64,000 nucleotides of DNA. Origin: an uncultured delta proteobacterium. GTDB taxonomy: Bacteria; Desulfobacterota; RBG-13-43-22. The position numbers and the translations under genes were made by a program. The stretch is taken from the NCBI GenBank assembly GCA_963843145.1, contig CAWJJC010000015.1, positions 1 through 64,000 on the forward strand. Reading direction: 5' to 3'. The notes below the pieces were generated by a model that was not told the DNA's origin, searched no databases, and saw nothing but the letters and a program-made list of their open reading frames with translations. Position 1 is the first letter of the stretch; the number at the start of each line of letters is the position of its first letter. This document shows, in pieces, positions 35,425 to 58,268 of the stretch.

Positions 35425-36914
35425 CTATCTGTGAATAATGGGCAGATAATTTTTTGGAGAATTAAACACGTAGGCCGCTCCGGCGGTAAGAGCCGAATTG
35501 TCCCCCTGATTGCCGTTCACCCCCGTGGCGTTGCTGGCTTCACTATAGGCCCCGACGACCACCGTGTCCCCGGATATTGCCACTGAAGTCCCGAAGAGGT
35601 CCCCCGCGTTGGTATTGGAGGCCTTGAGGTAGGCCTGCTGGGCCCAGACCCCGCCGCTGCGGACAAACACGTAGGCCGCTCCGGCAAAATTGGCCGAATT
35701 GTCCCCCTGATTGCCGTTCACCCCCGTGGCGTTGCTGGCCTCACCAGAGGCCCCGACGACCACCGTGTCCCCGGATATCGCCACCGAAGTCCCGAATGAG
35801 TCACTGGCGCTCGGTATTGGAGGCCTTGAGGTAGGCCTGCTGGACCCAGACCCCGCCGCTGCGGACAAACACGTAGGCCGCTCCGGCAATAAGTGGCCGA
35901 ATCGTCCCCTTGATTGCCGTTCACCCCGGTAGCGTTGCTGGCCTCACCAGAGGCCCCGACGACTACCGTGTCCCCGGATATCGCCACCGAAGTCCCGAAT
36001 GAGTCCCCGGCCCCGGTATTGGAGGCCTTGAGGTAGGCCTGCTGGATCAGCGGGTCAATAGTCAGGGGGTAGACGGCCTGTCGGTCGTCTACTACGATCT
36101 GTACTCGGCTCCCCGCCCCTTCCAGCCGGGCCGGTACCCGGAAACCCCCGGCATCCACCACGGTCAGTTCCCCGTAGGTCAGCCGCACCCGGCCGTCCCG
36201 GTCGTGGAAGCTGACCTGTCGCCCAAGAGGATCCGCCTCCGGATTAAGCCCCCCTTGCACCGCCAGGGCCAGGGCCAGGGGCTGCTCGGCTCCCAAACCC
36301 GCGGGCCGTTTCTTCACCGTAAATCCCTGTTCCAGTCCTCGTTCCCCATTTTCAACCCATTCAATCAGGGACCCGTCCCAGCGGTAATATACTCGGTTGT
36401 TCTCCGCCCAGACCTGTCGCGGCGGTCCGGTCAACTCGATCGCTCCATACCGGACCAGTCGCAGACCCCATTTCCAACTTCCCTCCGCGGGCTGTATTTG
36501 CATTCCCCCTTTGGCAAAGGTCGACTGTAATTGCTGGCCTGGATTAAAGGATTGATAGGTCCCGTCTGAGGCCGCTTGGACCCGATGCCGGTGAAGATCC
36601 ATTTCCTTCTTAATGGCCTGCCACTCTCCAGCCTCCAGACCGGAAGGGACTTCCTCCGGCCCAAGCAGGCGGCTCGATTTTCCGGATAGGGCGGCTTCAT
36701 TCTTCTCTTGAGCTTTTAGCACTTCGTTTCGGATAACGGATGTGTTTATCTTGGAAAACGAAGTCTTGACGGGAGGAAGAAGGTTAGCCGGGAGAGGAGG
36801 GGTTTGGACCATGGCGCTGGTTGGTGCTATGCCGGCCGTCAGCGGTAAAACCAGCCAGGTAACAGTTACCAGCAGGAAAAACCCGAATAGACCAAAAAGA
36901 CGGATCGTTTTCAT
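35425..36914 (-). CDS. Secreted FG-GAP repeat protein with C-terminal YLPIIHR motif; frameshifts at ~35830-35890
   Basis: Signal peptide; YP.TIDP linker; three tandem QQAYLKASNT...FG.SVAISGDT.VVGA...AGAAYVF repeats; ends NYLPIIHR*. Confidence 0.82.
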
Positions 36915-37293
36915 ATTGCCTCCTGAAGCTAAAGGGTTGGGTCCAATTTACAGGTCGGAGGGAACCAGGCGCTCTTAGGAATTATCATTACCTAAAAAGA
37001 TATCGCCTGGGGGACAAGAAATAAATAAGGTAAAACCCCTATTTTAAGGAGTAAATCATTGTATTTTGTGTCCTCTTATTACCTCGGCAAATAATAATAT
37101 CAACTCCGAATTAGGCAATGATTAGAGATAGGTTGTCCTGGCTTCTCCCCTGGGAAAATACAGTTTTTCCCTTAATAAAATACGTTATTTACCCCATATT
37201 AATCTTCAATTTATTACTGTTTACTATGACCATGAAGGAGTAAAATCCAATTTCCGGTCAACCTCCGAGCATGGTCGATTGTTGAGGAGGTAT

Positions 37294-37571
37294 ATGATCT
37301 TGCGCAGCTTATTGGTTCGTCTATTGCTTGTGTTTGGCTTGACGCAAGCCTTGTGGCTGATGTACTCGCCAATTTTACCTGTCCAGGCCGGCGGTTTGGT
37401 CACCAATTGTGCCGACGACGGCCAATTCAGCAGCCTGCTGGCCGGCGGCGGGAACATTACGTTCGACTGCGGCACGGCGCTGCCCGACCGGTGGGTCCGG
37501 CCTGCGATATCGGCGCCGTGGAATATAGGGCGTTCTTACCCTGGCTTTATCTGCCCTTAATCTCAAAATGA
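37294..37571 (+). pseudogene. Internally deleted paralog of the 46481 beta-helix/choice-of-anchor Q gene
   Basis: Signal peptide plus GGG.ITF.CG joined out of frame to RPVG.ACDIGAVEY...LYLPLISK*. Confidence 0.75.
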
Positions 37572-37777
37572 TAAAGCCAGGTTCGCTGGTCAGGGCAATA
37601 GGCGATTTAATCCAAAAAAGTCGGTCTCGATTTTTCTCATCCCGAATTTCCTTATTTTCATCCATACCATATGGTGTCTTTATCCCGGGTGAAAAAAGTT
37701 TATTAGCAGAGGACTGATCCTATCATCAACAGATCTTGTTCTGAAAACGAAAAGTGAAACATGAAAGGGAGGTTATC

Positions 37778-40597
37778 ATGAGGCGATTTCGATTTCTGGG
37801 TGGTTTGACAATTTCGCTGGCCATAGCCGTCTATGCCTTGCTGTTCGGGAGAGTCCTTCCGGCAAGCGCCCAGGTCCCGGCCGGAACAATCTGGTTCGTC
37901 GACGACAGCATCAACGACGGACTGGCGGCGCATTGGAAATTCGATGAGGTAGGGGCCGGTACCGCGCTGGAATTCATCGTCGGCGCCGACGGGAGTCTGG
38001 TGCCCGGGGCCTCCATGGCGGCCAGTCCCCGGCCTCCGGTACTGTTTAACGATACCGCCTCTCTAACTTTGGATGGCGTGGACGGTAGGGTCGATATCGC
38101 CGATAACCCTTCCCTCAATCTATCCGCCAGTTTCACTGTGGCCGCCTGGGTAAAACGCAACGCGATAAATGTCTATCATGCCGTCTACGATTCCGGCGAA
38201 CAGGCCAAACACTGGTGGGTTTTCATCTCCGACCTGACGCAAGGCAACCTCCCGGGGCTGGGTGTGCGGGGAGTGACTGAAATCTACGGCACGAAGCCGA
38301 TTACCGATTTCGGCTGGCATCATATCACCGTGGTCAAGAATGGGGATACGGGCGCCAATGTGACCTTTTATATTGACGGAGTGGCGACGGGCGGGGGTTC
38401 AATAGGCGCTTTGACCCTGCCAAGCGGGGTCAAGCGGATCGGGGCTTTGTTGGACGGCAACTTTTCGGCGCATTTCGACGGCAATATCGACGACCTGCGC
38501 CTCTATAATCGGGCACTGAGCGCCCCGGAAGTGCAGCGATTGGCCCAGGGCCGCGGTTGCGTAACCGAGGGTACTGCCTGGTCTACGGCCTTTCGCGAAT
38601 TGCAATGCGGTCTGAGCATGGCGGCCGCGGGCGACCAGATCTGGATCGGTGAGGGCCTATATACACCCGGAGTCAGCGCCGCGCAATCATTTATCCTGAA
38701 GAACGGGGTTGATATTTTCGGCGGTTTCCTGGGGCTTAGTCCCGGAGGAGGCGAAACCGACCCGGGCCAACGCCCGGCCTTCAATGCCGATGCCCCTCTG
38801 ACCATTTTGAGCGGTGATGTGCTGGGCGACGATCTGCCGGCCACTTTTGCGAACTACGGCGACAACGCGTTCCATGTGATGACCGCCGGCACCGGCGTAT
38901 CCGCCTCCTTGGACCGCCTGGGGATCCATAGCGGTAGCGCGACCGGCGCCGGCCCTTCCGAAAACCTGGGCGGAGGGATGCTGGTCCAGACCGATGCGGG
39001 AACCATTCAGTTGACCGAAGTGGCCTTCTTTGCCAACCAAGCAACTTTCACCGGTGGCGGGTTGATGGCGCAAGCACCGGTCATTCTCAACCAGACGAGT
39101 TTTCTTAACAATAGCGCTCTATTTGGCGGCGGCATCGCAACCACAGTACCGCTAACCATTACCGGCGGACGGTTTAATAACAACCGGGCCACAACCTTTG
39201 ATGGCGGTGCCATCCAATCAACGGCCACGTCCGGCACCCTATCGATATCGCAGAGTACGTTTACGGGCAACGTGGCCGCGTTCTCAGGCGGTGCGATCAT
39301 TGTGGGGTCGGCAGCGCTGAACATCAACCAGTGTACTTTTCAGGATAACCAAACGAATACTTTTGATGGCGGCGCCATCAGTACCTCGGGAGTCCTGGAT
39401 ATCCAGAACTCAATCTTCAACTCCAACACCGCCAGGCAATTTGGAGGGGCGGTATCGGGCTCAGGGGGCGGAATCACAGTTCAAGGCAGCCAACTGACGG
39501 GCAATCGGGTTTTGGGGGGCAACTGCTCCCCTGCTTGCAGCATCGGTGATGGGGGCGCCATCTTCGCCCCTGGCCCCCTTACCGTTACCAATACAACCCT
39601 GACCAATAACTTTGCCAGGCTTAAAGGGGGTGCTATCTCTGGAAGGGGGGTGACTACGCTTAGTGACTCGCTGCTGACCGGTAATCAGGCCGGCACCCCG
39701 GGCGACGTGAACAACCCGGGCAAGGGAGGGGCGGTATATGTGACCGGAGAGGCCAGCCTCAGCAACAATGTGTTTGAACTCAATGCTGCCCAAAGTCCTG
39801 TCTCTGACGGCGGAGGCCTATTCGGGGAAAATGGGCCGGTGCTGTCAACCGGTAACCGTTTCAGCGGCAACTCCTCCACCCACTTTGGCGGCGGGGCGCG
39901 CTTGCCGTCTGCCCAGGTCAAAGGCGACCGCTATTTGAACAACACGGCTGTATTTGAAGGCGGCGGGATCCTAGCTTCAGGCAACCTAACGATTACCCAA
40001 ACGATTTTCGACGGAAATGCTTCCGACTTAAGCGGCGCGATTTCCGCCGCCGCCGGTCCGTCCGATCGCTCGCTACAGTTGAACATCGACAACTCGCTTT
40101 TCATCCGTAACCAGCGTCAAAGCATCGCCGGCGACGCTGACCTGCGTCTCTTCGATATCACCGGCAAGCTGGTGAATAATACCTTCGCCGATCCCGGGTC
40201 GGCCGGCGCGCTTTCCCTCAAGGCCTTCCGCAGCGACCTTCAAGTTGAAAACAACATTTTTGCCCATTACGGAAATAGCATCGATGGCGATACCGGACCT
40301 GGCGGTTTACCTGTCCAGGAAGACTACAACCTCTTCTTCAACGCTCCCTTGGGCCCCACCGTCACCTCCGGGGGCCACAGCCTGACCGGCAATCCCCTAT
40401 TCGTCGATCCGGCGACTCAGAACTACCGTTTGGCCGGCGGTTCGCCGGCCATTGGGGCCGGCCTGGACTCAGCCCTTCCGGCCTCGATTTTGAATGATCT
40501 CTCCGGGGGATTGCGGCGAGTTGGGCCTATCGATATTGGGGCCTATGAGTCTCAGAATCTTTTGTTCCTGCCGCTTATTTTAAGAAACGCGTTTTAA
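37778..40597 (+). CDS. Secreted LamG plus right-handed beta-helix (Pmp-like) plus choice-of-anchor Q-like protein
   Basis: Signal peptide; WHH.....F.G.IDDLR.YNRALS (LamG); F..N.A..GGAI repeats; L..GSPAI.AG...DIGAYE; ends FLPLILRNAF*. Confidence 0.88.
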   Translation: MRRFRFLGGLTISLAIAVYALLFGRVLPASAQVPAGTIWFVDDSINDGLAAHWKFDEVGAGTALEFIVGADGSLVPGASMAASPRPPVLFNDTASLTLDGVDGRVDIADNPSLNLSASFTVAAWVKRNAINVYHAVYDSGEQAKHWWVFISDLTQGNLPGLGVRGVTEIYGTKPITDFGWHHITVVKNGDTGANVTFYIDGVATGGGSIGALTLPSGVKRIGALLDGNFSAHFDGNIDDLRLYNRALSAPEVQRLAQGRGCVTEGTAWSTAFRELQCGLSMAAAGDQIWIGEGLYTPGVSAAQSFILKNGVDIFGGFLGLSPGGGETDPGQRPAFNADAPLTILSGDVLGDDLPATFANYGDNAFHVMTAGTGVSASLDRLGIHSGSATGAGPSENLGGGMLVQTDAGTIQLTEVAFFANQATFTGGGLMAQAPVILNQTSFLNNSALFGGGIATTVPLTITGGRFNNNRATTFDGGAIQSTATSGTLSISQSTFTGNVAAFSGGAIIVGSAALNINQCTFQDNQTNTFDGGAISTSGVLDIQNSIFNSNTARQFGGAVSGSGGGITVQGSQLTGNRVLGGNCSPACSIGDGGAIFAPGPLTVTNTTLTNNFARLKGGAISGRGVTTLSDSLLTGNQAGTPGDVNNPGKGGAVYVTGEASLSNNVFELNAAQSPVSDGGGLFGENGPVLSTGNRFSGNSSTHFGGGARLPSAQVKGDRYLNNTAVFEGGGILASGNLTITQTIFDGNASDLSGAISAAAGPSDRSLQLNIDNSLFIRNQRQSIAGDADLRLFDITGKLVNNTFADPGSAGALSLKAFRSDLQVENNIFAHYGNSIDGDTGPGGLPVQEDYNLFFNAPLGPTVTSGGHSLTGNPLFVDPATQNYRLAGGSPAIGAGLDSALPASILNDLSGGLRRVGPIDIGAYESQNLLFLPLILRNAF

Positions 40598-40740
40598 ACG
40601 GATGATGACAAATTGCCTGATAAGGCTGCCTGAGGAATCAAGCTCTATTCCGGGGGGGGTGAGATCCCAGATTTTCGCCTTGGCTATTTCAGGCCGTCAT
40701 CAAATGGGTGAATTTAAATCGGACGGAGGAAAGAAAGAAG

Positions 40741-42375
40741 ATGATTGTAACACATTCCAGATACCCCGTACTTTTGATGATGGGATTGATCCTGGTCATG
40801 TTTTGTTCCGCCCTTCCCCTCCAGGCCGCCACGAACGTCACCTTGAGTGGTGTCATGCCAGCTTGGGGGGATGTTAATTCTTTCCAGATCAGTTCGGATG
40901 GCCGGCGTGCCGTCTATCTGGCGGATCAGGATACGGATGGTGTTTTGGAGCTTTACAGCGTCTCATGGGACGGAAGTCCCCCGATTCGATTGAATCCCCT
41001 TCTTCCCACCGGCAGATCCATAGCCTCATTTCAGATCAGCCCGGACAGCCACCGGGTGGTTTATACGGCCGATCAAGATAACGCAAAAATCGTCGAATTG
41101 TATAGTGTGCCTATCGCAGGCCCGGCGGCGGCCGGGATCAAACTCAATGGGCCCCTGGTCCTCAGCGGTAATGTTGTTCGTTTCATTATCAGTCCGGACA
41201 GCACCCGGGTGATCTATCAAGCCAATCAACAAACCGCAAGTTTCCTGGAATTGTACAGTGTACCGATCGCGGGCCCGGCGGACGCCTGGATCAAGCTCAA
41301 CGGCCCCCTGGTCCTTAATGGGAATGTTGTGGATTATAAGATCAGCCCGGACAGCAGCCGGGTGCTTTATCGAGCCGACCAGGTCACCAACGGCGTCTTT
41401 GAGTTGTACAGTGTGCCGATCGCGGGCCCGGCAATGGAAGGGATCAAGCTCAACGGTTCCTTGGTTACTAACGGGTCTATTTTTGAATTTCAAGTCAGCC
41501 CGGACAGCAGCCAGGTGGTTTATAGAGCGGACCAACAAACCGATGAGGTCTTTGAGCTGTACAGCGTTCCTCTCGCGGGCCCTTCATCCGCCGGGGTCAA
41601 ACTCAACGGCTCCCTGGCCCTCAACGGAGATATTGTGGAGTTTCAGATCAGCCCGGACGGCAGCCGGGTGGTCTATCAAGCTGACCAACAAACCAATGAT
41701 GTTTTTGAATTGTACAGTGTGCCGATCAAAGGCCCGGCGGACGCCGGGATCAAGCTCAACGGCCTCCCGAGTCTTCTGGGATTTTTTTTGGTTTTTCAGA
41801 TCAGCCCGGACAGCACCCGGGTGGTTTATCGAATCGACCACCAGACCAATGGTGTTTTTGAATTGTTCAGCGTGCCGATCGCAGGCCCGGCGGACGCCTG
41901 GATCAAGCTCAACGGCCCCCTGGTCCCCAACGGTGCGGTTCAAGAATTTCAGATCAGTCCGGACAGCGCCCAGGTGGTTTATCGAGCCGACCAACAAACC
42001 CATAATGTCCTGGAATTGTACCGTGTGCCGATCAAGGGTCCGGCGGACGCCTGGATCAAACTCAACAGCCCCCTGGTCCTCAACGGTTCGGTTTTGGATT
42101 TTCAGGTAAGCCCGAATAGTAGTCGGGTGGTTTATAGAGCCGACCAGGAAACGGTTAACGCCCCTGAATTGTACAGTGTCCCGATGGGGGGCCCGGCGGC
42201 GGCCGGATTCAAGCTTAACAGCTTTCTGGTTCTCAACGGGAGTGTCACGTCTTCTTACCAGATCAGCCCGGACAGCGGGCGGGTGCTTTATATCGCGGAT
42301 CAAGATACCTATTCTGTATTTGAGCTTTTTATGACCTCCAATTATCAACTTTACTTGCCTCTGATGCTCAGATAA
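40741..42375 (+). CDS. Secreted beta-propeller protein with ten ~51-aa TolB/PD40-like repeats
   Basis: FQISPDS.RVVY.ADQ.T..V.ELYSVPI.GP....IKLNG repeated with a 153-bp period; ends YLPLMLR*. Confidence 0.88.
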   Translation: MIVTHSRYPVLLMMGLILVMFCSALPLQAATNVTLSGVMPAWGDVNSFQISSDGRRAVYLADQDTDGVLELYSVSWDGSPPIRLNPLLPTGRSIASFQISPDSHRVVYTADQDNAKIVELYSVPIAGPAAAGIKLNGPLVLSGNVVRFIISPDSTRVIYQANQQTASFLELYSVPIAGPADAWIKLNGPLVLNGNVVDYKISPDSSRVLYRADQVTNGVFELYSVPIAGPAMEGIKLNGSLVTNGSIFEFQVSPDSSQVVYRADQQTDEVFELYSVPLAGPSSAGVKLNGSLALNGDIVEFQISPDGSRVVYQADQQTNDVFELYSVPIKGPADAGIKLNGLPSLLGFFLVFQISPDSTRVVYRIDHQTNGVFELFSVPIAGPADAWIKLNGPLVPNGAVQEFQISPDSAQVVYRADQQTHNVLELYRVPIKGPADAWIKLNSPLVLNGSVLDFQVSPNSSRVVYRADQETVNAPELYSVPMGGPAAAGFKLNSFLVLNGSVTSSYQISPDSGRVLYIADQDTYSVFELFMTSNYQLYLPLMLR

Positions 42376-42939: not shown

Positions 42940-44274
42940 ATGAGAGCGCTTTCAGAATATGAGTGCTCAACTGATTGGATCTGCGCCATGCGATCAGACA
43001 AATGCTTAGCTCGAACCAACCGCCAGGCATGGGTTGCGGGCCTTTCCTTTTTTCTGATTCTGCTAATGATGGGTGCGAATATCGGCATAAGCCAGGATCG
43101 TATCGCGGTTGCCGCACCGTCGCCAAAAGTGATATCCATCTGGGGGGGAGCGAGATCCTCGATCGTCCTAAAATCGGACGGTACAGTTTGGGACTGGGGC
43201 ATGAATTGGCATGGCAAATTGGGCGATAACAGCGTTTCGATTTTCTCGGATCAGGCCGACTTCGCCGGTGGCAGCAATGATCGCTTTACGCCGATTCAAG
43301 TCCACGGGCCAGGCAATGTGGGTTATCTCGATTCGATTACGGCGATCATGGGCGGCGAGAGCCATAGCTTCGCCCTGAAATCGGACGGCACGGTCTGGGC
43401 CTGGGGTTGGAATACCATGGGTCAGTTAGGAGATGGAACCTATACGGACCGATATACACCTGTCCGAGTCAGCGGATTATACTCAATCCTCGCCCTCGGA
43501 GGACGGGGGTATCACAGCCTGGCCCTCAGTTCGGACAGCACGGTCTGGAGCTGGGGATGGAATGCCGGTGGACAATTGGGTGATGGAACGACCATCAACA
43601 GAAACCTGCCTGTCCAGGTCATTGGACTGAGCGGAGTGTCGATGATTAGCGGAGGATATAAGCACAGCCTCGCTTTAATGGCTGACCAGACATTACGATC
43701 CTGGGGATTTAATAACGACGGCCAACTGGGGGATGGATCCAAGAACAATAGTGATACCCCTGTCCAAGTCAGCGTATTGACCGATATTATCCAGGTCTCC
43801 AGCGGATGGAATCATAACGTGGCGCTCAAATCAGACGGCACGGTCTGGACCTGGGGTTGGAATTTCAATGGCGAATTGGGGAACGGGACCTCCTCAGATA
43901 GTAATGTGCCTATCCAGGTCAGCGGGTTAAGCAACATGATCGCAGTATCTGGCGGGGATTTTCACACTGCAGCGCTCAAGTCGGACGGCACGGTCTGGAC
44001 CTGGGGATGGAATTACGATGGTCAATTGGGAGACGGGACAAATACGGAACGACATACTCCCGTCCAGGTTGTCGGATTAAGTGATGTGATCGCTATTGCC
44101 GCCAGAGACCACCATAACCTGGCGATCAAGGCAGATGGTTCAGTCTGGGCGTGGGGCTGGAATATCAATGGTCAGTTGGGCGATAACACGACTACCGACA
44201 GAAATATTCCCGTACCAGTCATTTTCTGGAACAATTGGAACAATCAAGTCTATTTGCCGCTCGTTGTGAGATGA
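42940..44274 (+). CDS. Secreted RCC1-repeat beta-propeller protein
   Basis: Seven [19 protein letters not shown]-type repeats; ends VYLPLVVR*; start uncertain. Confidence 0.9.
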
Positions 44275-44355
44275 CAAAAACTGGAGCCGAATGGAGAAAG
44301 GATGAGGCACCTGTATCTAAAAAACAGAAATGGCAGGAGAGATTTGGGGAGGCCT

Positions 44356-46480: not shown

Positions 46481-48185
46481 ATGAAAGAGGAGCGCTGGAG
46501 GGATAGCAGGAATCTAAAGGTGCTGATTCAATCAGGATTATTGATTCTGGTTGGAACGATCCTAATTACAGTAACTGCCCAGGCAGCGGGGGTCGTCGGG
46601 ACCGGTACACCGGCCAGTTGCACTGAGACAGCGCTGGATACCGCGCTGGCGGGCGGTGGCGCTGTGACCTTCAATTGCGGCGCGTCGCCGTTCATCATTA
46701 TTGTCACCGGGGTCAAGACCATCAGCAGCGACACGACCATAGACGGTGGAACCTTGGTCGCGCTCAGCGGCGGGAACGTGACGCGCGTGCTGGACGTAAA
46801 TGCCGGCGTAACCCTCACCCTCAATAACCTCACGGTCCAGAATGCCTTCCGGAGCCTGGGCGACGGCGGCGCGATCCAAAACCTCGGTACGCTCAACATT
46901 ACGAACTGTAAATTCCTGAACAACAAGACCACGTCGGCCTGGAGCGGCGGGGCGATTTTGTCACTGGGACCATTGAACATCACCAACAGCGAGTTTGCTT
47001 TCAACGAAGGGGGGAATGGCGGTGCCCTCTACCCGCGCTTTTCTGCTGCGATCACGATGATCTCGGGCAGCTCATTTCATGACAACTCGACGTCGAACAC
47101 GACGGACGGCTGGGGTGGCGCGATGCTGATCTGGGACGGCGCGCCGGTGACCGTACAGAGCAGCCAGTTCATCCACAATACCGCCCGCTGGGGCGGCGCG
47201 TTATACGTCTTCCCCAACAGCAGCTTGACCCTGACCAGCAGCTTGTTGGCCAATAACGTGGCCGACGGCGGCCCCAGCGCGGACGGTGGCGGCGGGGCCA
47301 TCTACAACAATGCCCACCTGGTGCTGGACGCTACCACGGTGGAGAACAACGTCGTGGTGGTGCCTCCGGGTTTCGGCTTCCCCGGGATTCGCGCCGGCGG
47401 CGCCATTTGGAACAGCACCTCCGGTTCGATCCAGATGAGCGGGGGCGCGCTGCGAGCAACCACGCCCTGCACGGTGGCGCGCTGTACAGCCTCGGAAACG
47501 CCGCGCTGGTCATGGCCACACTGGCGGATAACCTGGCCGGCAGAGGCGGCGCCATCGAAAATAGTAACAATTTGGCCAACACGCTGACCATCAGCGGCTC
47601 CACCTTCAGCGGCAACCAGGTTTCCTTCGCGATTTATCCCGCCGTCGTTACCCCTCTGGGCAGCGCCATCTTCAACACGGCGCGCCTCGACATCACCAAC
47701 AGCACCCTCAGCGGCAACAGCGGCAAATGGCGCTGCAAGAAGACAACAGCGTCATCACGCTTACCAACGTCACCGTGGCGCAAAACCCGAATGGCGGCCT
47801 CGGCTCTGATCAGAGCCCCAATACGAGTCAGGTCCGGTTGTTCAATACCTTGCTGGCCGGCAACGGCACGCACAACTGCGGATCGATCCTGTTCGGGACG
47901 TTCACCAGCCAGAACAGCCTTTCGAGCGATAACAGTTGCCTAACCTGGGTCGGCAGCCAAAACCAAAACGGCATCGATCCGCTGTTGAGCCCGCTGGGCT
48001 TTCACGGCGGCCCCACCCTGACGCACATGTTGGCCGCCGACAGCCGGGCGGTGGACGCCGGTGCCAACTGCCCCGCGCTGGACCAGCGCGGGGGCCTGCG
48101 GCCTGTGGGTGCCGCCTGCGACATCGGCTCGGTGGAGTATGGAGCGCTCTTGCCATTGCTTTATCTGCCGTTAATCTCGAAATGA
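46481..48185 (+). CDS. Secreted beta-helix/choice-of-anchor Q protein; two frameshifts (~47455, ~47727)
   Basis: GTPASCTE..L..AL..GG..TFNCG, GGAI repeats, DQRG..RP....CDIG.VE; ends LYLPLISK*; the duplicate at 56474-57226 is in frame across both sites. Confidence 0.85.
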
Positions 48186-48298: not shown

Positions 48299-51295
48299 TT
48301 AGTTAAACAGCAGGGGGAGCCATATATTGGGATTCCAGACCACTGTAGCTGAACTGAAGAATTGAACCCCCGCCGCTACGCCGGTGGCTACAATCCTGTC
48401 CGTTCCCGGTGTCCCGTCATTCGAGTAGGTGAACGCCGCCCGGCCGTTGCTGTCGGTCGTGCCGGAACCGCCCTGGTCGCTGTTGGGGCCGGAGAGAATG
48501 TTGAAAAAGACCGGCACGTTCGCCAGCGGAGCACCGTCGGAGGTGATCGTCGCCGTGACCGTGTGGGGGCCGCTGGATTTGTTCGAACTCTCCTCGGGTG
48601 AAAGCGTGCTGATCAAGGTCCCCGCCGGGGGGGGACCGCTGGTCACCGTAACGCACCGAGAAAACTCCGAGGTACTCCCCTGGGGATCCGTAGCCGTGGC
48701 CGTGATGACCTGACCCGGGGAGACGGTGTCAAGCAGGGTCGCGCTGAAAGCCCCGGAGCCTGCGACGTCAGTCACTACAAGGGCTTCGCCCAGGAAAGTC
48801 CGGCCCTCGCCGAAACCCGAAGGGCTGCAAGACGAATTGGAGAAGAACTCCAACCGGAACTCGGTGTCCGGGGTGCTGTTGATCATGCCGGCGATGGCGA
48901 TGCTGTTCACAATCGTGGCGCTCGCCAGATCGGGATAGTTCTGGCCGGAATTGGCCCGCACGTCGGCGTCCAGGGGATCATTGGTGTCTACACCCGTCGG
49001 AGGAGAGAGGTCGATGGCCGCGGTGCTGCCATTTTCAAAGATGCTGTTACGGGAAATCGTATTTCCCGTGCCCGTACCACTGATGAACACCCCTCGCAAC
49101 GCGTTAAACGCGATGACATTGTTTTCAACCCTGTTCTGATCGGCGCTGGAGAGCAAGATCCCCGTATCCCCGTTTCCCCGGTTCAGGGTCCCGGTCAAAT
49201 CCGTGCCGATCAGGTTATTCCAGACGAGATTTCTTCTCGCCCCCGGCCCCAGGGCCACCCCGGCCACGGTGTTGCCCGAGATGACATTCCGATCCCCAGG
49301 ATCAGGACCACCGATCCGATCATCCTCGCCAAATACGCCGATCCCCAGCCGATTGGGTATGACCGCGCTGCCCGGCGTAAGGCCGATCAGGTTCCCGGAG
49401 ATCCAGTTCCCGTTTCCGGTCACCTGAATCGCGCCAATATTCGCGGAAGGCTGATGGTTCAGAAAGGCCAGGCCTTGAACAGTAATGTTATCCCCTGATA
49501 AATTTAACATCGGGGACTCAAGCCCGGCGCCATCCAAGCCGATTTTGACCACGCCGTTGAAGCCGGTCGATGCGGTGTTGGGGGCGGCCCCCGGCTGGGT
49601 AAAGCCGGCGATCACCGCAGGCTGGGTGATGGTCACCACACCTGCGAGGTCAATAACATGAGACTGGGAGCCGGGGATGTCAAAGAAGATCCGGTTCTCT
49701 ACCGCAGGATTTTCGGTGCCGTTGGAGTCTAAAACAGCCTGGGCAAAGCTGCCTGGGCCGGTCGGGTTGGTATTGTTGACACCGAACTCCTGGCCGGCTC
49801 GCGCCAAGACGGGGGAAAACTCCGAGGTATCCGGGATCGTTCCGGCGCGGGTGGCTGTGGAGCTGATCCAGTGCCCCTGGGAGGCGGGCAGGGCCGCTTC
49901 AAAAACCGCCTCGCCCTTCCCGTCGGTCGTTACGTCGATGGTCCCGAGATAAAACTGGCCCTCCCCGTAGCCGCTCGGGTCCCGGACCTCGTTTCCGTAA
50001 AAATCGATATGAAACGGGGTATTGGGCACGCTCTGGAGCCCCCCCTTGACCTTGAGGCCTGTACCGCTCGCCTCAACGCTGGAGAGGATCGGGAAGTTCT
50101 GGAGCCGGTTCGGGCCTTTGTCCTGGTCAGGGGCCGGGTCGTTTTTTGTTACCCCATCTGCTCCAAGGTCAATTCCGAGGCCTCCGTTTTTGAAGATGCG
50201 GTTTCCCCGAATCGAATTTCCGATGGATTCGAGGATCGAAAGGATCACACCTGATTCCAAATCATAACCACTCGATTTGGTAACGTTAATACCACTACCA
50301 CCATTATTCGCGATGATGTTTCCTGCTCCCGGTGTCGTCTGGCCGACAACAGAGTTTGTCTCCCCCTCGAATATTATACCGGGTCCGCCATTCCCCAAGG
50401 CACCGGTGCCAGACACATCCGTACCGATGAAGTTGCCGGTGATCACTCCCTCCGTTCCAATTTGTGACCTGATACCTTCATACTCATTTCCCGAGATCAC
50501 ATTTCGTTGTTCGGGACTCGTTCCGCCGATTGATGTCCCAGTAGCCCTAAATATGGTAATCCCTACGCCATTTGCCAACTTGGCACTGCCTGTCTTGTCG
50601 GTTCCAATGAAATTCCCCTCGATCTTGGTCCGATTAGCGTTAGAAATTGTAATTCCCGTTCTGGTATTTCCAGAAATAACGTTCCGTGATATCGGGTCCG
50701 CTCCTCCAATAATGTTGGACGAAGAATTCTCCTGGATTTCAATGCCATATCTATTGCCCATGTCCGCGGAGCCGGAAGCAGGAATGCCGATGAAATTGCC
50801 GGAGATCACATCTCGGCCGGCACCCGCCAGAATAATTCCGATAAAACTAAATCCGTAGATCGCTAATCCCTTCACTTTGCTATCTGCCGCAACGATATTT
50901 AAACCACTCGCAAGCCTACCTGCCAGGGAACCGTCCAATTCGATCTGCAATACCGCATTGTTGCCGGTGACCTCGGTGTTGGGGCTGGCCCCGGGCTGGG
51001 TGTAGCCGTCGATGGTTACCGGGGAAGTGATGGTTGGCAACGGACTTAAGGGCTTGATCGCATGGGGGCCTGCACCGGGTATATTAAAGGCAATGGTGTC
51101 CGCATTCGTCACGGTCAGATTCGCCTGTTCAATGGCGTCCCTCAGTGACCCCGCCCCGGCATCGTTGGTATTGATTACGGTGAAGGTTTCAGCGTGGGCC
51201 GTCAGCGTTGCCGCGACCAGGCCCAGGCCCAGCAGCAACCCCTGCACGATTCTTTTCCCCAAACTTCCTCTCATTCTGAAGACTTTGGTGTTCAT
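48299..51295 (-). CDS. Secreted parallel beta-helix protein with C-terminal Big_1/invasin-like Ig domain
   Basis: VINTND.G.GSLR.AI..AN, GNFIGTD, N.ISGN, QN.P.L, TSEFS (duplicated module); TTD.NG.A.F; ends IWLPLLFN*. Confidence 0.88.
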   Translation of the reverse strand: MNTKVFRMRGSLGKRIVQGLLLGLGLVAATLTAHAETFTVINTNDAGAGSLRDAIEQANLTVTNADTIAFNIPGAGPHAIKPLSPLPTITSPVTIDGYTQPGASPNTEVTGNNAVLQIELDGSLAGRLASGLNIVAADSKVKGLAIYGFSFIGIILAGAGRDVISGNFIGIPASGSADMGNRYGIEIQENSSSNIIGGADPISRNVISGNTRTGITISNANRTKIEGNFIGTDKTGSAKLANGVGITIFRATGTSIGGTSPEQRNVISGNEYEGIRSQIGTEGVITGNFIGTDVSGTGALGNGGPGIIFEGETNSVVGQTTPGAGNIIANNGGSGINVTKSSGYDLESGVILSILESIGNSIRGNRIFKNGGLGIDLGADGVTKNDPAPDQDKGPNRLQNFPILSSVEASGTGLKVKGGLQSVPNTPFHIDFYGNEVRDPSGYGEGQFYLGTIDVTTDGKGEAVFEAALPASQGHWISSTATRAGTIPDTSEFSPVLARAGQEFGVNNTNPTGPGSFAQAVLDSNGTENPAVENRIFFDIPGSQSHVIDLAGVVTITQPAVIAGFTQPGAAPNTASTGFNGVVKIGLDGAGLESPMLNLSGDNITVQGLAFLNHQPSANIGAIQVTGNGNWISGNLIGLTPGSAVIPNRLGIGVFGEDDRIGGPDPGDRNVISGNTVAGVALGPGARRNLVWNNLIGTDLTGTLNRGNGDTGILLSSADQNRVENNVIAFNALRGVFISGTGTGNTISRNSIFENGSTAAIDLSPPTGVDTNDPLDADVRANSGQNYPDLASATIVNSIAIAGMINSTPDTEFRLEFFSNSSCSPSGFGEGRTFLGEALVVTDVAGSGAFSATLLDTVSPGQVITATATDPQGSTSEFSRCVTVTSGPPPAGTLISTLSPEESSNKSSGPHTVTATITSDGAPLANVPVFFNILSGPNSDQGGSGTTDSNGRAAFTYSNDGTPGTDRIVATGVAAGVQFFSSATVVWNPNIWLPLLFN

Positions 51296-51600
51296 CCGGG
51301 CACCCTCACTCTTTGAATAAATCCTATGTTCCGAAGTGGATTGATTGCCGCCAATTTCAGGACAAGCGTAACTAATTGTACTTGTACGCTCATCCCCCCT
51401 TTTTAAAAAATATAAGTATTCTTTTTTAAGTTGGCCAGCAAAATCCACTTTTTTAGGGGCAGTTTCGCCCTTATATACGGAACGCCTCCTAATATTAGGT
51501 TGTTTTTAGTGCCCCCCAAGTTGAATATAAGGGAATTTTAACAAGAAAATACAGGGTATCCCTTATTTTGATTAAGGGAAAAACTCTTATATTCTAATCT

Positions 51601-51691
51601 AGGGACGGTGAATCCTCGAGACCAGGGTGCCATCCCCTTGCGCTTTATGACCCAAACGGGAGGAGTGTTCCTTCCCTTGATTTCTCGCTGA
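51601..51691 (+). pseudogene. 3' remnant of the 57485-58096 gene
   Basis: GTVNPRDQGAIPLRFMTQTGGVFLPLISR* fused directly to the promoter region. Confidence 0.85.
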
Positions 51692-51915
51692 TCGTTAAAT
51701 GACCTCAATTGCCGGTAACTTCTACGGAGGAAGACCCTTGGGTTGGCAGGTTGGACCAACCGTAATCGGCGGTATTAATATCTAGTGGAAATTATTAACC
51801 CTTAAGGGCAAAACAACATTAGCAGGTTCAATTAAGCCTAACGTAAATTTCGGTTTTGCTCGGTAATCGGAATTTGGGCTAGTGTACTCGCTATAAACCT
51901 TTACCAGGGCTTCGG

Positions 51916-53163: not shown

Positions 53164-53275
53164 TTATGAAGGCCTGGGCGGGCCGAGGGCCTTGTGGCAG
53201 AGTATTTACAAATGATAACCAACGAAAAGGCATTTCAAATTTGTTGACGTTATGATAAAAAATGGGTTGGGAAAA

Positions 53276-53459
53276 TTATTAACGGTCTCAAAATAATATT
53301 GACAGGATTCCTTGAAGCCGCCAGTCACAACCAAAGACAAAAGACGATCTCTCGCAAGAGCAACTTGGTCTTTCTCTGCGCCCTCGGCGAACTCGAGCGA
53401 AGCGGGCGAGAGACAAAAAGAAAACACCCCTGTAACTACAATTATGAGACCGTTAATAA
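53276..53459. repeat. Small MITE-like element with perfect 15-bp inverted ends
   Basis: ttattaacggtctca (53276-53290) / tgagaccgttaataa (53445-53459); one similar end also at ~14609. Confidence 0.6.
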
Positions 53460-53553
53460 AATAGATTTTTTGAGTTTCTTGGGAAACGTTTTTATCGAGG
53501 GAAGGTCAATGGAAGAATACTATTCTCCCTTTCTCAAATGAGAGACTTACAAG

Positions 53554-55356: not shown

Positions 55357-55409
55357 GGTCAGGATTTATGCCCTGTTTTTTCATTTATCCCAATAATATA
55401 ACGTTGGTT

Positions 55410-56411
55410 CTAGATTGCATATTTCTGAAGGCAGAGGTCAGGCATTTCCGGAGAGTTTGCCAACCGGGTAACGGATGAGGTCGTTGTTCCTAAGTAGCGC
55501 GCTACTTCCGCCCCTGAATATCCCCATCTCTTGACCGCCAGTTGACAGAAAAGTCTTCGGGTCTTTACTACCTTGGCGGCACGGCTTCCGGACCGAACCA
55601 AATCCCAATCGGTTCCTTCCGACCGGGAAACCCGGGAGGCCAGTGTCCCCAGTTCAACCTTCCGAGCTTTGAGCCGGAGAGTTTCCTCTAACCGTTTCTC
55701 CGCCTGGGACATGACCTCCTCAATGAACTCGCCGCTCCCCAAAATCCGCTCATCCGAGGCCATCCGCAGTTCATGCCGCCGCAGAGACAGCACTTGCGAC
55801 CAACCTCCGGCGCTGCGGATCAAACCCCCGCCAACTAAGTCAGGCCGCCGACCCATCGGGATCCCGTCGGCCACAAATCCCTCATATTCCGCTCGCGCCT
55901 TCCGCAATTTCGGACTAAAAATGGAAAGGATCGATTCGGTCTCCTGCCAGTCCCGCCCTACTTTCCCCATCAAAACCGAATGCCCGCTCCAAGGGTATTC
56001 CTTTAATTTAGGCAAATCAGCCACCACTCCCCCCCGCAGAGGATTGAGATGAATGTAGCGCGTTAACTCCAAAAGGTAGGCCTCTTCTTCGCACACGATG
56101 GATTTATAGCGATTCTGGAAAAGGTGACCAAACCGTTTATGCCGTCGGTTGAAGTTTACTACATACCCGGTCATCAATTTTCTCATATTCGTGGAGAGAG
56201 GCTGAAGACCGGTACGTACCAATAAATGCATATGATTGGGCATCAGCGCCCAGGCATAGACCACCCACGCCCCGGCGCGAGCCCTTTCCTCCAGACGGAA
56301 CAGGAAATCCTCCCGGTCTTTATGATTTCGAAAGATTTTGGTTCTTTCTATCCCTCGGGCCATGACATGGTGCAGAACCCCCGGTGCGTCTAATCGAGCT
56401 TGTCTGGGCAT
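55410..56411 (-). CDS. REP-associated tyrosine transposase-like protein (Y1_Tnp plus C-terminal HTH)
   Basis: MPR..R, HH...RG, HUH motif NHMH, GHLFQ.RY, RYIHLNP, YPWS; C-terminal HTH. Confidence 0.92.
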   Translation of the reverse strand: MPRQARLDAPGVLHHVMARGIERTKIFRNHKDREDFLFRLEERARAGAWVVYAWALMPNHMHLLVRTGLQPLSTNMRKLMTGYVVNFNRRHKRFGHLFQNRYKSIVCEEEAYLLELTRYIHLNPLRGGVVADLPKLKEYPWSGHSVLMGKVGRDWQETESILSIFSPKLRKARAEYEGFVADGIPMGRRPDLVGGGLIRSAGGWSQVLSLRRHELRMASDERILGSGEFIEEVMSQAEKRLEETLRLKARKVELGTLASRVSRSEGTDWDLVRSGSRAAKVVKTRRLFCQLAVKRWGYSGAEVARYLGTTTSSVTRLANSPEMPDLCLQKYAI

Positions 56412-56417
56412 ATTCAG

Positions 56418-56446
56418 AATTTATTACACTTCCCCTACTCTGTCAA
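56418..56446 (-). promoter_or_regulatory. sigma70-like promoter of the Y1 transposase, probably leaderless transcript
   Basis: TTGACA-N17-TAAATT then 6 nt to the ATG; identical in copy 2. Confidence 0.6.
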
Positions 56447-56473
56447 TGCAATTTAGAACCAACGTCCCGTATT

Positions 56474-57226
56474 ATGAGTGGGGGCGCGTTGAGCAACAAC
56501 CGCGCCCTGCACGGTGGCGCGCTGTACAGCCTCGGGAACGCCGCGCTGGTCATGGCCACACTGGCGGATAACCTGGCCGGCAGAGGCGGCGCCATCGAAA
56601 ACAGTAACAATTCGGCCAACACGCTGACCATCAACGCCTCTACCCTCAGCGGCAACCAGGTTTCCTTCGCGATTTATCCCGCCGTCACCACCCCGCTGGG
56701 CAGCGCCATCTTCAATACGGCGCACCTGGACATCACCAACAGCACCCTCAGCGGCAACAGCGGCAGCACGGCGCTGCAAGAAGACAACAGCGTCATTACG
56801 CTTACCAACGTCACCGTGGCGCAAAACCCGAATGGCGGACTCGGCTCTGACCAGAGCCCCAATACGAGTCAGGTGCGGTTGTTCAATACCTTGCTGGCCG
56901 GCAACGGCACGTACAACTGCGGACCGATCCTGTTCGGGACGTTTACCAGCCAGAACAGCCTTTCGAGCAACAACAGTTGCCTAACTTGGGTCGGCAACCA
57001 AAACCAAAACGGCATCGATCCGCTGTTGAGCCCGCTGGGCTTTCACGGCGGCCCCACCCTGACGCACATGTTGGCCGCCGACAGCCGGGCGGTGGACGCC
57101 GGGGCCAACTGCCCCGCGCTGGACCAGCGCGGGGGCCTGCGGCCCGTGGGTGCCGCCTGCGACATCGGCTCGGTGGAGTATGGAGCGCTCTTGCCATTGC
57201 TTTATCTGCCATTAATCTCGAAATGA
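56474..57226 (+). pseudogene. 5'-truncated duplicate of the 46481-48185 gene
   Basis: Matches 47435-48185; begins immediately at the Y1 element end; ends LYLPLISK*. Confidence 0.88.
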
Positions 57227-57484
57227 TTGAGCCGGATCGGTTAGATCTCCCCGTCCCTTGGCAATGAACATCAGCCGAAGACGGCTCAGCGGCAACAAAT
57301 CAATTGGTAATTGCTTTATTGCCACCTCCAACGGAACGCCCCCTAATATAGGTTGTTTTTACTGCCCCTCAAGGTGAATATAAGGGAATTTTAACAAGAA
57401 AATACAGGATATCCCTTATTTTGATTCAGGGAAAAACTGTTATATTGTAATCCAGGGAATAAAAAATCAAAAAAGGAGAATGCT

Positions 57485-58096
57485 ATGAAGAAAACTATGT
57501 GCCTGATCGCGAGTATTTTTTTGGGAATTGGAATTTTAGGGATTGGCTCCTACCCGAGCTTGGCCGCAGCACCCTCCTTGGCTTCCAGTGGAGACGAGGT
57601 GCCACCTGCCAAACCCATTGGTGCATCGAAATCGCTGGCCGCCTTGCCGGCACCTACCCCCGGGGAAACCTTGGTCTATTTTTTTCCATCGGACAATGAT
57701 GCCACAGCTACTGTCATGTACATGTTAAATACCGATTCTGTTCCCCATACGGTCGCTTTGAGGGGGTATAGCCAAAACGGGGTTACGGTTTATTCCCTAA
57801 ATATCGATATCGGCGCTACCAGCATGTTACGTCTGATCAGCGATTTGGTAGCGGCTAGTCCTCCACCCAGTTGGGCAGCCGACTCTAATTTAGGCACTCT
57901 TGCTCCGATCATAACCAATTTTACCGATTTTACCTATTTTGCCAGTCTATCTCTGCCGAAAGGGGTATTGGTGGACGGATATGTTATCTTTAACCCCGGT
58001 ACAGGGACGGTGGATCCTCGGAAGGACCAGGGAGCAATCCCTTTGCGTTTTATGACCCAAACGGGTGGAGTGTTCCTTCCCTTGATTTCTCGCTGA
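57485..58096 (+). CDS. Secreted hypothetical protein with C-terminal FLPLISR motif
   Basis: AAGGAG RBS, signal peptide, Pro-rich linker; ends GGVFLPLISR*. Confidence 0.8.
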   Translation: MKKTMCLIASIFLGIGILGIGSYPSLAAAPSLASSGDEVPPAKPIGASKSLAALPAPTPGETLVYFFPSDNDATATVMYMLNTDSVPHTVALRGYSQNGVTVYSLNIDIGATSMLRLISDLVAASPPPSWAADSNLGTLAPIITNFTDFTYFASLSLPKGVLVDGYVIFNPGTGTVDPRKDQGAIPLRFMTQTGGVFLPLISR

Positions 58097-58267: not shown

Positions 58268-58268
58268 G

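Follow-up and report, generated by a model that had tools for sequence, protein, structure and literature searches.

The window, that is, the whole stretch of 64,000 nucleotides analyzed here, was scanned for the pattern [YFW]LP[LIVM][ILMV]x[RKN] in the last 15 residues of its 1698 stop-to-stop frames of at least 20 amino acids. Exactly ten frames end in this way, stopping at 35425 (minus strand), 37571, 40597, 42375, 44274, 48185, 48299 (minus strand), 51691, 57226 and 58096. An initial annotation had listed ten such tails, and the scan of all frames recovered every one at the same place and with the same residues. The genes and gene remnants that carry them, together with an adjacent transposase gene, are as follows.

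35425..36914, minus strand: frameshifted FG-GAP repeat gene (PF14312 FG-GAP_2, E 3e-23 and 4e-11) with 201-nt internal repeats
35718-36914, minus strand: N-terminal frame of the FG-GAP gene, with signal peptide
35425-35943, minus strand: C-terminal frame of the FG-GAP gene, ending in NYLPIIHR (tail codons 35428-35451)
37236..37571, plus strand: 111-aa relic of a choice-of-anchor-Q C-terminus (NF041518 21.2 bits, under its cut-off of 25), ending in LYLPLISK (37545-37568)
37754..40597, plus strand: intact 947-aa exported protein with signal peptide, LamG, PMP-repeat beta-helix and choice-of-anchor Q, ending in LFLPLILRNAF (40562-40594), where three residues come after the basic position
40708..42375, plus strand: intact 555-aa exported PD40 beta-propeller made of 153-nt tandem repeats (repeat family D1), ending in LYLPLMLR (42349-42372)
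42940..44274, plus strand: intact 444-aa exported RCC1 propeller, ending in VYLPLVVR (44248-44271)
46481..48185, plus strand: PMP-repeat/choice-of-anchor-Q gene in two frames (46481-47587 and 47568-48185; NF041518 73.5 bits), ending in LYLPLISK (48159-48182)
48299..51448, minus strand: intact 1049-aa exported NosD-type beta-helix with a Big_1 Ig-like domain, ending in IWLPLLFN (48302-48325)
51572..51691, plus strand: C-terminal relic, 39 aa long, copied from the end of the gene at 58096 (203-aa protein family) and lying at the edge of a segmental duplication, ending in VFLPLISR (51665-51688)
55410-56411, minus strand: IS200-like transposase gene abutting the duplicate at 56366-57226
56366..57226, plus strand: 5'-truncated duplicate of the gene end at 47.46-48.19 kb (94-99% identical; NF041518 71.6 bits), ending in LYLPLISK (57200-57223)
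57485..58096, plus strand: intact 203-aa exported protein matching no Pfam or NCBIfam family, ending in VFLPLISR (58070-58093)

These genes represent six unrelated architectures, namely FG-GAP, LamG/PMP beta-helix with choice-of-anchor Q, PD40, RCC1, NosD with Big_1, and the 203-aa protein without a family. The initial annotation had counted ten tails on unrelated folds and at least seven distinct architectures. The tails do sit on unrelated folds, but the number is six and the ten are not independent, since those at 57226 and 51691 are duplicates and the ones at 37571, 48185, 57226 and 40597 have a choice-of-anchor-Q end in common, with the tail coming after that domain. Five of the ten copies are broken: the FG-GAP gene and the gene at 46481-48185 are frameshifted, 56366-57226 is truncated, and 37236-37571 and 51572-51691 are relics.

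Such tails might arise by chance or from a DNA repeat that overlaps stop codons, and three of the ten in the window are indeed recent DNA duplicates. However, ten of 1207 window frames of at least 30 amino acids are tailed, while 200 within-frame shuffles averaged 0.025 and never exceeded 1; in the genome 48 of 103,316 frames are tailed, against 20 shuffles that averaged 3.95 and never exceeded 7. Independent tails spell the same residues with different codons, and only one pair among the ten exceeds 50% ungapped identity over the 150 nt upstream. Since the tail codons vary from copy to copy, conservation acts at the protein level. Shuffle expectation and codon differences together lead us to reject this explanation, which we regard as having next to no chance of being right. 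Position within the protein is also characteristic. The reversed motif occurred once at C-termini, and the motif itself four times within a control slice of 14 residues located 31-44 residues upstream of the end. A crude gene set of 5227 ORFs contains the motif 51 times, in 34 cases with only 0-3 residues left before the stop. Among the 48 genome tails, 35 end exactly at the K/R/N position and 13 have 1-7 residues more, with 0-3 residues beyond the basic position in 47.

Judged by their sequences, the ten tails belong to the YLP-box, a C-terminal motif already catalogued in NCBIfam, and are not new. Two models cover it, NF050076 sort_motif_YLP (11 positions) and NF053834 ultrashort_CTERM (10 positions), both described as "YLP-box putative sorting motif-containing protein". 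In profile searches the RCC1 tail (44274) scored 18.1 bits with NF050076 (cut-off 15), the sole window tail to exceed that cut-off, and 16.4-17.1 bits with NF053834 (cut-off 10). The tag had been called uncharacterised in the initial annotation, and in the sense of uncatalogued this description has to be withdrawn, as described sorting-signal HMMs (NF050076, 18.1 versus 15; NF053834, 16.4 versus 10) match it. Other tails fall under the NF050076 cut-off of 15, the PD40 tail (42375) at 12.8-13.5 bits and those at 58096, 51691 and 37571 at 10.4-11.9 bits (11.9 for 58096; 10.4 for 37571, which scores 10.9 bits with NF053834). At E values up to 10, NF050076 lists five of the ten and misses five. 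The most divergent tail, IWLPLLFN (48299), is listed by neither model. One of ten window tails passes the NCBI cut-off of NF050076 and two pass that of NF053834, and the whole genome has just 3-4 matches above the NF050076 cut-off. Models this short have low information content, and in six-frame searches 10 of 14 control genomes also gave NF053834 scores over the cut-off, so HMM evidence by itself is thin. All ten tails nevertheless fit aromatic-L-P-hydrophobic-hydrophobic-x-basic at the extreme C-terminus. The local flavour is [LIV]-[YF]-L-P-L-I-x-[KR] followed by 0-3 residues; L-P-L-I is found in 39 of 48 genome tails and K is as frequent as R, preferences which explain why most score under the NF050076 cut-off.

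The host genome (G000) encodes LpxC, Omp85/BamA and DsrA, and these genes mark it as a diderm, sulfite-reducing, LPS-bearing bacterium outside Chloroflexota; the initial annotation had likewise supposed a non-Chloroflexota host. Its suggestion that similar tails are common in Chloroflexota was also correct, judging from homologues and from a search with a VYLPLVxR-stop DNA pattern, in which 73 of 79 titled matches were Chloroflexota and the remaining six were chance matches in frames of 8-39 amino acids. The tails share with the YLP-box an end of 8-10 residues (aromatic-L-P-[LI]-[IV]-x-[RK]), signal-peptide proteins as carriers, many architectures and dozens of copies per genome, and differ from it in occurring in a host with LpxC, Omp85 and DsrA, outside Chloroflexota. 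A structural criterion does not depend on taxonomic range, and we therefore file them as YLP-box despite this host. DNA-pattern hits against the reversed control were 42/9, 34/8, 24/9 and 19/7 in G000 and its three sister genomes of the same genus (G001-G003), an excess of 12-33; the tail counts equal those of Chloroflexota genomes. There was no clear excess in 12 genomes of the sister genus g4 or in three genomes of g2 and g3, and no genome outside this genus reached at least 15 hits and more than twice the control in a sample of 201 genomes of the phylum. In this phylum, only the host's own genus shows the tail excess. The novelty lies in the host, an unrelated double-membraned bacterium in which the YLP-box is abundant.

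We found no paper naming the YLP-box and no machinery assigned to such tails, which agrees with the initial annotation within the literature and databases searched, and we know of no enzyme that reads it. The sorting or anchoring role is putative, for the NCBI curators as it was for the initial annotation. An association with export is apparent in the genes themselves. A signal-peptide-like leader is present in 5/5 intact genes, just as the initial annotation had stated for every full-length tagged protein, and in the N-terminal piece of the FG-GAP gene. The scan of C-termini it had suggested, with a test for enrichment among signal-peptide proteins, gave a clear result: N-termini resembling signal peptides occur in 22 of 38 tagged ORFs, compared to 1196 of 5189 (23%) untagged ones (Fisher p 4e-6). 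Tagged architectures genome-wide go beyond the six of the window, and their domains are all of extracellular types (LamG, PMP, PD40, RCC1, FG-GAP, NosD, Big_1, BNR/sortilin, fn3, Flg_new_2, SBBP, DUF4394, metallophosphatase).

The tail could also be a structural element that forms the final beta-strand of every fold, or one that subunits exchange as a strand when they assemble into oligomers or fibres. Its residues favour beta structure, numerous carriers are beta-helices or propellers, and terminal strands can cap or close such folds. AlphaFold models of two unrelated folds, both based on deep alignments, predict otherwise: pLDDT is 38-53 in the last 12 residues of a 592-aa beta-helix protein (mean 94.4) and below 50 in residues 436-444 of the RCC1 propeller (body 94-98). 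The tail is thus modelled in both proteins as a disordered extension and not as the integral strand that the initial annotation had named as a finding against a sorting signal. The same eight residues moreover terminate six unrelated architectures, and close homologues have different C-terminal modules where the tail stands. A structural role is therefore very unlikely in our view. YLP-type tails terminate 11 of the best 120 RCC1 homologues, and others in this set end in a T9SS tail (PF18962; three), SLH (PF00395; two) or a C-terminal membrane helix (three), so the YLP tail appears to hold the same C-terminal slot as accepted anchors.

Comparison with these and other sorting systems separates the YLP-box from each of them. 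LPXTG proteins also have a C-terminal L-P motif on Sec-exported surface proteins, often past a linker and in the slot after choice-of-anchor domains, but the host tails lack the membrane helix and long basic tail. Membership was rejected on the 0-3 residues past the basic position in 47 of 48 tails and on the result for sortase (PF04203), found in none of 31 genomes (G000 and 30 relatives). PEP-CTERM/exosortase and MYXO-CTERM/myxosortase resemble the YLP-box in placing one C-terminal tag on many unrelated exported proteins per genome; they combine a signature motif, a transmembrane helix and an Arg-rich cluster, whereas the YLP-box has 2-3 hydrophobic residues and a basic one. PEP-CTERM membership was rejected, the tails being helix-free and exosortase (PF09721) not tracking the tail in this family. 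The T9SS C-terminal domain (Por_Secre_tail, PF18962) directs Sec-exported proteins across or onto the diderm envelope and, as noted above, ends some RCC1 homologues where the YLP tail stands here. It is a folded domain of ~70-100 residues; the host tail has 8-11 residues and is predicted to be disordered, and a Pfam scan of the ten window proteins gave no match to PF18962 or its relatives, so T9SS membership was rejected as well. In Braun lipoprotein the C-terminal Lys is linked to peptidoglycan by L,D-transpeptidases. This is a case of a last basic residue serving envelope attachment without a membrane helix, a role that is putative for the YLP-box; the host tails differ in having Arg as often as Lys, also Asn, and in that residues may come after.

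No known sorting enzyme that we searched for follows the tail. In addition to the result for sortase, PrsW was found in none of the four genomes of this genus. Exosortase was present in G000 and G001 and also in the tail-poor g4 genomes G013 and G015, whereas searches of G002 (90% complete) and G003 (94% complete) did not find it. Caspase-like C14 peptidases occur in g4 and were not found in G003, and S41 peptidase is a single housekeeping copy in all four genus genomes and 29 of the 31 genomes searched, with no genus-specific paralogue. Across 121 Chloroflexota loci and the G000 islands, no untagged family is a repeated neighbour of tagged genes. As far as the account in bioRxiv 10.1101/2023.06.07.544157 goes, the MYXO-CTERM reader is encoded away from its substrates, was unknown for more than 10 years and came to light through partial phylogenetic profiling alone; the YLP-box would now be in the same situation as MYXO-CTERM was then.

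One possibility is a general C-terminal processing or quality-control tag, in which a ubiquitous envelope protease or chaperone binds the hydrophobic L-P tail and no dedicated machinery exists. S41 Ctp/Prc, HtrA-type PDZ proteases or a prolyl isomerase of the FkpA/SurA/PrsA type could then hold, mature or degrade large repeat proteins. The wide distribution of S41 and the hydrophobic, exposed tail with its prolyl bond suit this idea, as does an FKBP_N-domain protein encoded between two tagged genes on contig C5, and a universal reader would account for imported genes working in a new host and for the lack of a specific neighbour. It would leave the restriction to Chloroflexota and one genus unexplained, though, and the last residue is basic rather than non-polar. 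PDZ-read tags depend on recognition of a non-polar last residue at a set distance from the free carboxylate, to which the 13 of 48 tails with 1-7 residues past the basic position are a poor fit; with K, R or N as the last motif residue and no genus-specific S41 paralogue, a PDZ-read tag of the Tsp/Prc or DegS type seems unlikely. We consider a general tag unlikely. Somewhat less so is inherited baggage, with tails imported along with genes from Chloroflexota-like donors, unread in the diderm host and located in slowly decaying islands. By sequence similarity the tagged genes appear closest to Chloroflexota genes. Every named close homologue of the 592-aa protein is from Chloroflexota (nine named among 120 listed), and nine G000 paralogues are interspersed with Chloroflexota and metagenome sequences, with six label changes of which at least three are forced by well-supported branches. 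A tagged metallophosphatase was found only in G000 among 19 searched genomes of its family. Five broken copies out of ten, amid IS200/IS110 genes and segmental duplications, would suit decay of useless imports, and no known sorting enzyme tracks the tail. On the other hand, the excess in all four genus genomes stops at the genus boundary, which random import is unlikely to respect, and the tagged genes are not recent arrivals, given that their GC3 (0.651) is the same as that of the genome (0.649; p 0.88). In G001, 19 of 20 fetched regions contained tail-ending ORFs, 20 in total, and only seven of these matched any tagged ORF of G000; the best identities were 73, 58 and 54%, compared to 91% for an ordinary membrane protein. 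The motif is retained in these pairs. Between sister species the set of tagged genes thus changes quickly while the tail persists, apparently under selection. Baggage is an explanation to which we give a small chance.

The reading we lean towards, by a modest degree, is that YLP-box tails on Sec-exported proteins are read by an extracytoplasmic partner that fixes their place in the envelope. Tagged proteins would be exported by Sec via the N-terminal signal peptide and fold outside the cytoplasm, while the 8-9 residue tail would remain flexible and solvent-exposed past the last domain. The partner may be a protease or transpeptidase cutting in or after L-P-L-[IV], with a leaving group of 2-6 residues, or a docking receptor, and the outcome could be retention, attachment or onward transport. 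The genus may have repeatedly acquired Chloroflexota-type tagged genes and, since it keeps 20-40 of them per genome, it presumably also holds the reader. We entertain tentatively, as possible although not probable, that one LPS-bearing, DsrA-positive diderm genus has taken up a complete Chloroflexota-type YLP-box system, substrates and reader, that is functional there. The signal would then be independent of the monoderm cell wall, and the search for its reader would become a small, well-posed phylogenetic-profile problem, with the reader among the few genes common to the four genus genomes and tail-rich Chloroflexota and absent from g2, g3 and g4.

The window by itself adds further members of a catalogued motif. 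The YLP-box is among the shortest candidate protein-sorting signals known and, within a major, poorly cultivated phylum, is carried by a few dozen proteins in each genome examined. Its occurrence at full strength in one diderm genus implies that it is independent of any Chloroflexota-specific envelope feature, unless the tails are dead weight here. The tail-rich genus and its tail-poor sister genera form a natural contrast which could reveal the reader in the way MYXO-CTERM was solved; in one core membrane protein, genomes of g2, g3 and g4 are 54-82% identical to G000.

All stop-to-stop frames of at least 20 amino acids in the window (n=1698) were scanned for the tail [YFW]LP[LIVM][ILMV]x[RKN], with the motif required in the last 15 residues. 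Exactly ten frames end this way, and they are the ten that the initial annotation had reported, at the same coordinates and with the same sequences; 200 within-frame residue shuffles gave a mean of 0.025 and a maximum of 1. In the whole genome (G000; 5.35 Mb, 32 contigs) 48 tails were found, against a mean of 3.95 and a maximum of 7 in 20 such shuffles. The reversed motif was detected at a single C-terminus in the genome, and the true motif occurs only four times in the slice 31-44 residues before the end. Within a crude set of 5227 ORFs, 34 of 51 occurrences lie 0-3 residues from the stop, and independent tails encode the same residues with differing codons. The shuffles, the reversed and positional controls and the codon differences together show that the tail is a real, position-specific signal selected at the protein level.

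The carriers in the window are:
FG-GAP protein
LamG / PMP beta-helix / choice-of-anchor-Q protein
PD40 propeller
RCC1 propeller
NosD-type beta-helix with a Big_1 domain
203-aa protein without a family
three more choice-of-anchor-Q ends

We count six unrelated architectures among these carriers rather than the "at least seven" proposed earlier. Five copies are intact and five are broken (two frameshifted, one 5'-truncated and two short relics). Signal-peptide-like leaders are present in all five intact copies, as had been claimed for every full-length carrier, and none of the enzyme genes elsewhere in the window bears the tail, in line with the statement that no cytoplasmic enzyme there ends in it. 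Three of the window tails stem from segmental duplications; the duplicated segments are 47.46-48.03 kb with 56.50-57.07 kb (94-96% identity) and 53.55-55.08 kb with 58.27-59.79 kb (98-99% identity).

The 48 tail-ending frames are spread over 16 contigs and grouped in islands, the largest of which is the window's, with ten tails. Their logo is [LIV]-[YF]-L-P-L-I-x-[KR]; the basic position is the last residue in 35 of 48, while in the other 13 it is followed by 1-7 residues. The proposed check for enrichment among signal-peptide proteins came out positive, since a signal-peptide-like N-terminus was found in 22 of 38 tagged ORFs (that is, ORFs ending in the tail) and in 1196 of 5189 untagged ones (Fisher p 4e-6); the 38 include two false positives of the loose pattern (contig C5 at 39187 and contig C22 at 298888). 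The majority of leaderless tagged ORFs are pieces of extracellular repeat proteins. Metallophosphatase, DUF4394, BNR/sortilin, fn3, Flg_new_2 and DUF7948+SBBP domains were identified on further carriers.

The tail had been presented as an uncharacterised signal, which did not hold in so far as the motif is already catalogued. When 40-residue C-termini were scanned against NCBIfam at a permissive threshold, the RCC1 tail matched NF050076 (sort_motif_YLP) with 18.1 bits (cut-off 15) and NF053834 (ultrashort_CTERM) with 16.4 bits (cut-off 10). NCBIfam gives both models the description "YLP-box putative sorting motif-containing protein", so a described sorting-signal HMM already covers the tail; the sorting-signal interpretation itself agrees with this catalogued, putative assignment. 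In a six-frame search of G000, NF050076 gave 36 matches at E <=10, about half of which coincide with tails by coordinates. Only 3-4 of these exceed the cut-off, indicating that the local L-P-L-I flavour is a divergent form of the catalogued motif. NF053834 gave 32 matches, but 10 of 14 control genomes also have matches above its cut-off. The G000 tails are best filed with the YLP-box, in a host lineage new to it. A literature search found no mention of the YLP-box by name or model id, and the listed literature matches to tail strings concern other subjects, mostly antimicrobial peptides. A term search of a 2023 preprint by NCBIfam curators on orphan sorting signals gave no "YLP", "Chloroflex" or "ultrashort" (bioRxiv 10.1101/2023.06.07.544157). 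As far as the literature and NCBIfam searches showed, the YLP-box is an orphan putative motif.

An exact-pattern scan for V-Y-L-P-L-V-x-R-stop over 185,579 species genomes returned at least 122 stretches. Among the matches listed, 73 of 79 titled loci are from Chloroflexota (Anaerolineae, Chloroflexia, Roseiflexus, Herpetosiphonaceae, Ardenticatenaceae, Thermoflexales, Limnocylindria and Promineifilaceae); the six other titled matches can be dismissed as chance, with frames of only 8-39 aa. Tail-ending ORFs, 102 in total and carried mainly by proteins of 500-2000 aa, are present in 77 of 121 listed loci. These two results confirm the earlier statement that such tails are common in Chloroflexota. 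The host had been suspected to lie outside that phylum, and G000 indeed encodes LpxC (2 matches), Omp85/BamA (2 matches) and DsrA (613 bits, cut-off 393). Tails share contigs with the diderm markers: C5 carries Omp85 (119.8 kb) together with tails (136-149 kb), C20 carries Omp85 and tails, and C12 carries LpxC and tails. Contamination by Chloroflexota contigs is therefore ruled out as an explanation.

We also counted a degenerate DNA pattern of tail plus stop, with the reversed pattern as control. Hits/control were 42/9 in G000 and 34/8, 24/9 and 19/7 in its congeners G001, G002 and G003, compared with 16-33 hits and a control of 3-11 in five Chloroflexota genomes, so the genus is as tail-rich as Chloroflexota. 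A genome of sister genus g3 (G005) gave 17/11, and in sister genus g4 the pattern exceeded the control in none of 12 genomes. In a sample of 201 genomes from the phylum, the pattern reached at least 15 hits and more than twice the control in G000 and G003 alone. What the analysis adds to the catalogued motif is its occurrence outside Chloroflexota, in a diderm, and this sets up a clear comparison by which a reader of the tail could be identified.

That the tail is an integral strand of each fold is a reading we consider very unlikely. AlphaFold2 models of the 592-aa beta-helix protein (alignment of 91 sequences) and the RCC1 propeller (34 sequences) have bodies with pLDDT 94-98, while the tails, residues 581-592 and 436-444, have pLDDT 38-53. 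The check for an integral strand was thus negative, both models leaving the tail without beta structure. The best 120 RCC1 homologues include 11 with a YLP-type tail (412-452 aa, 61-70% identity), and others with a T9SS tail (3), SLH domains (2) or a membrane helix (3) at the C-terminus. The choice-of-anchor-Q domain precedes the tail, and its name likewise implies an anchor slot. The tail thus occupies a slot held elsewhere by accepted anchoring modules. Dockerin as an alternative C-terminal module gave only one weak match among six beta-helix homologues (P0012, 21.7 bits, cut-off 22.9), a hint at most.

With somewhat better than even confidence, we propose that the tail is a post-export recognition peptide for a lineage-specific extracytoplasmic partner. 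After export, this partner would read the tail, and the very short segment beyond L-P-L-[IV] could be what a protease or transpeptidase releases as its leaving group, or could act as an epitope for docking. In the leading alternative, the tails are baggage of imported genes without any reader. This would suit the broken copies and our failure to find a candidate reader, but we consider it unlikely: the tail excess stops sharply at the edge of the genus, tagged genes have a native composition, and the tail persists while the tagged repertoire turns over rapidly. Reading by a universal protease or chaperone is doubtful, as it would leave the phyletic restriction of the tail unexplained.

The search for the proposed partner covered neighbours and known enzymes. 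All-against-all BLAST of 672 ORFs from 121 Chloroflexota loci revealed no untagged family beside tagged genes in more than four loci. Untagged families recurring in the G000 islands are ABC-transporter parts, PAS/GGDEF signalling proteins, Lcl_C-domain proteins and transposases, the remaining neighbours being ordinary metabolic genes. Conserved neighbours were rejected as machinery, with no candidate recurring in either set. Sortase was found in none of 31 related genomes and PrsW in none of the four genomes of the genus. Among the 31 genomes, the phyletic patterns of exosortase and peptidase C14 do not match that of the tail, and S41 peptidase, a single copy in 29 of the 31, does not follow the tail either; G002 and G003 gave no exosortase match. 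P0121 (C5:151653-152645), a 331-aa protein with about eight transmembrane segments and SCCG and CPFC motifs, is encoded 3 kb away from a tagged gene and belongs to no Pfam or NCBIfam family. We rejected it as reader because genomes throughout the bacterial family carry it at 54-97% identity, g2, g3 and 7 of 12 g4 genomes among them, and none of five Chloroflexota genomes gave a match. Exosortase-family and caspase-like (C14) genes were observed about 15 kb apart in two genomes, possibly as a mobile PEP-CTERM/EPS island:
G000, C3:5079-5615, exosortase-family gene
G000, C3:19875-20705, C14 gene
G001, C6:116575-117300, exosortase-family gene
G001, C6:133429-134190, C14 gene

A strict YLP-type tail is present in 77 of the best 120 homologues of the 592-aa protein, and a looser one, judged by eye, in about 105; all nine with an organism name are Chloroflexota. 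In a FastTree phylogeny of 115 C-terminal regions, whose metagenome rows may include relatives of the G000 genus, nine G000 paralogues are scattered, with six label changes, at least three of them forced by starred branches. A clade with Anaerolineae and Thermoflexales sequences encloses one G000-G001 pair (local support 100%). Tail-ending ORFs are present in 19 of 20 fetched G001 regions, and 7 of 20 G001 tagged ORFs match any tagged ORF of G000 (best identities 73, 58 and 54%). A vertically inherited membrane protein of G000 is 91% identical to that of G001 and 97% to that of G002. The tagged metallophosphatase was found in G000 alone among 19 family genomes searched. GC3 is 0.651 in tagged genes and 0.649 in the rest of G000 (p 0.88). 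The picture suggested by these comparisons is of a fast-turning accessory surface-protein repertoire, of which the tail is the constant part.

Several loci have unusual arrangements. At C5:132745-137759 a tagged PMP beta-helix gene immediately follows minor-pilin genes (N_methyl/GspH-like, PilX_N), where a type IV pilus operon would have a PilY1-type tip adhesin; 5 kb beyond, an FKBP_N-domain protein is encoded. At C13:11466-16149 the gene of the species-specific tagged metallophosphatase is strung together with those of a B12-binding-domain protein, a lipid-A-acyltransferase-like protein and a PBP5-type D-Ala-D-Ala carboxypeptidase. C12:1-20000 and C26:2001-21650 are mirror-image near-duplicates with identical gene order, including a 592-aa tagged protein 98% identical to its copy on C20 (P0001); strain heterogeneity or duplication in the assembly may account for this, G000 being rated at 6.9% contamination. 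A look for sequencing runs that contain the sequence listed none of RNA; four DNA runs from one soil-metagenome study contain 9-21% of sampled words.

Nested recent rearrangements extend across 51500-64000 of the window. The GAF-GGDEF gene at 53554-55356 is copied at 58269-60071 (98-99%), where it is divided into two ORFs. Two IS200-like genes (55410-56411 and 62242-63243) are 100% identical, and there is a pair of IS110-family genes (60816-62093 and 63437-64717), of which the latter extends beyond the window. At 41028-42245 the PD40 propeller gene consists of seven or more tandem copies of a 153-nt (51-aa) unit, with 69-76% identity to the first copy, which marks its product as a recently expanded repeat protein. 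The RCC1 gene is directly followed by two genes (44302-44910 and 45094-45774) for exported proteins that are familyless or have weak DcrB matches only; Atlas neighbours of the 44302-44910 product are unnamed clusters. Upstream of the tail island, a catabolic cluster (16154-32633) contains histidinol-dehydrogenase-family paralogues (18202-19470 and 31320-32633), a UPF0261 protein, a creatininase-family amidohydrolase, MoxR-type AAA and CoxE-VWA proteins, and a xanthine-dehydrogenase-type molybdoenzyme (25199-28856).
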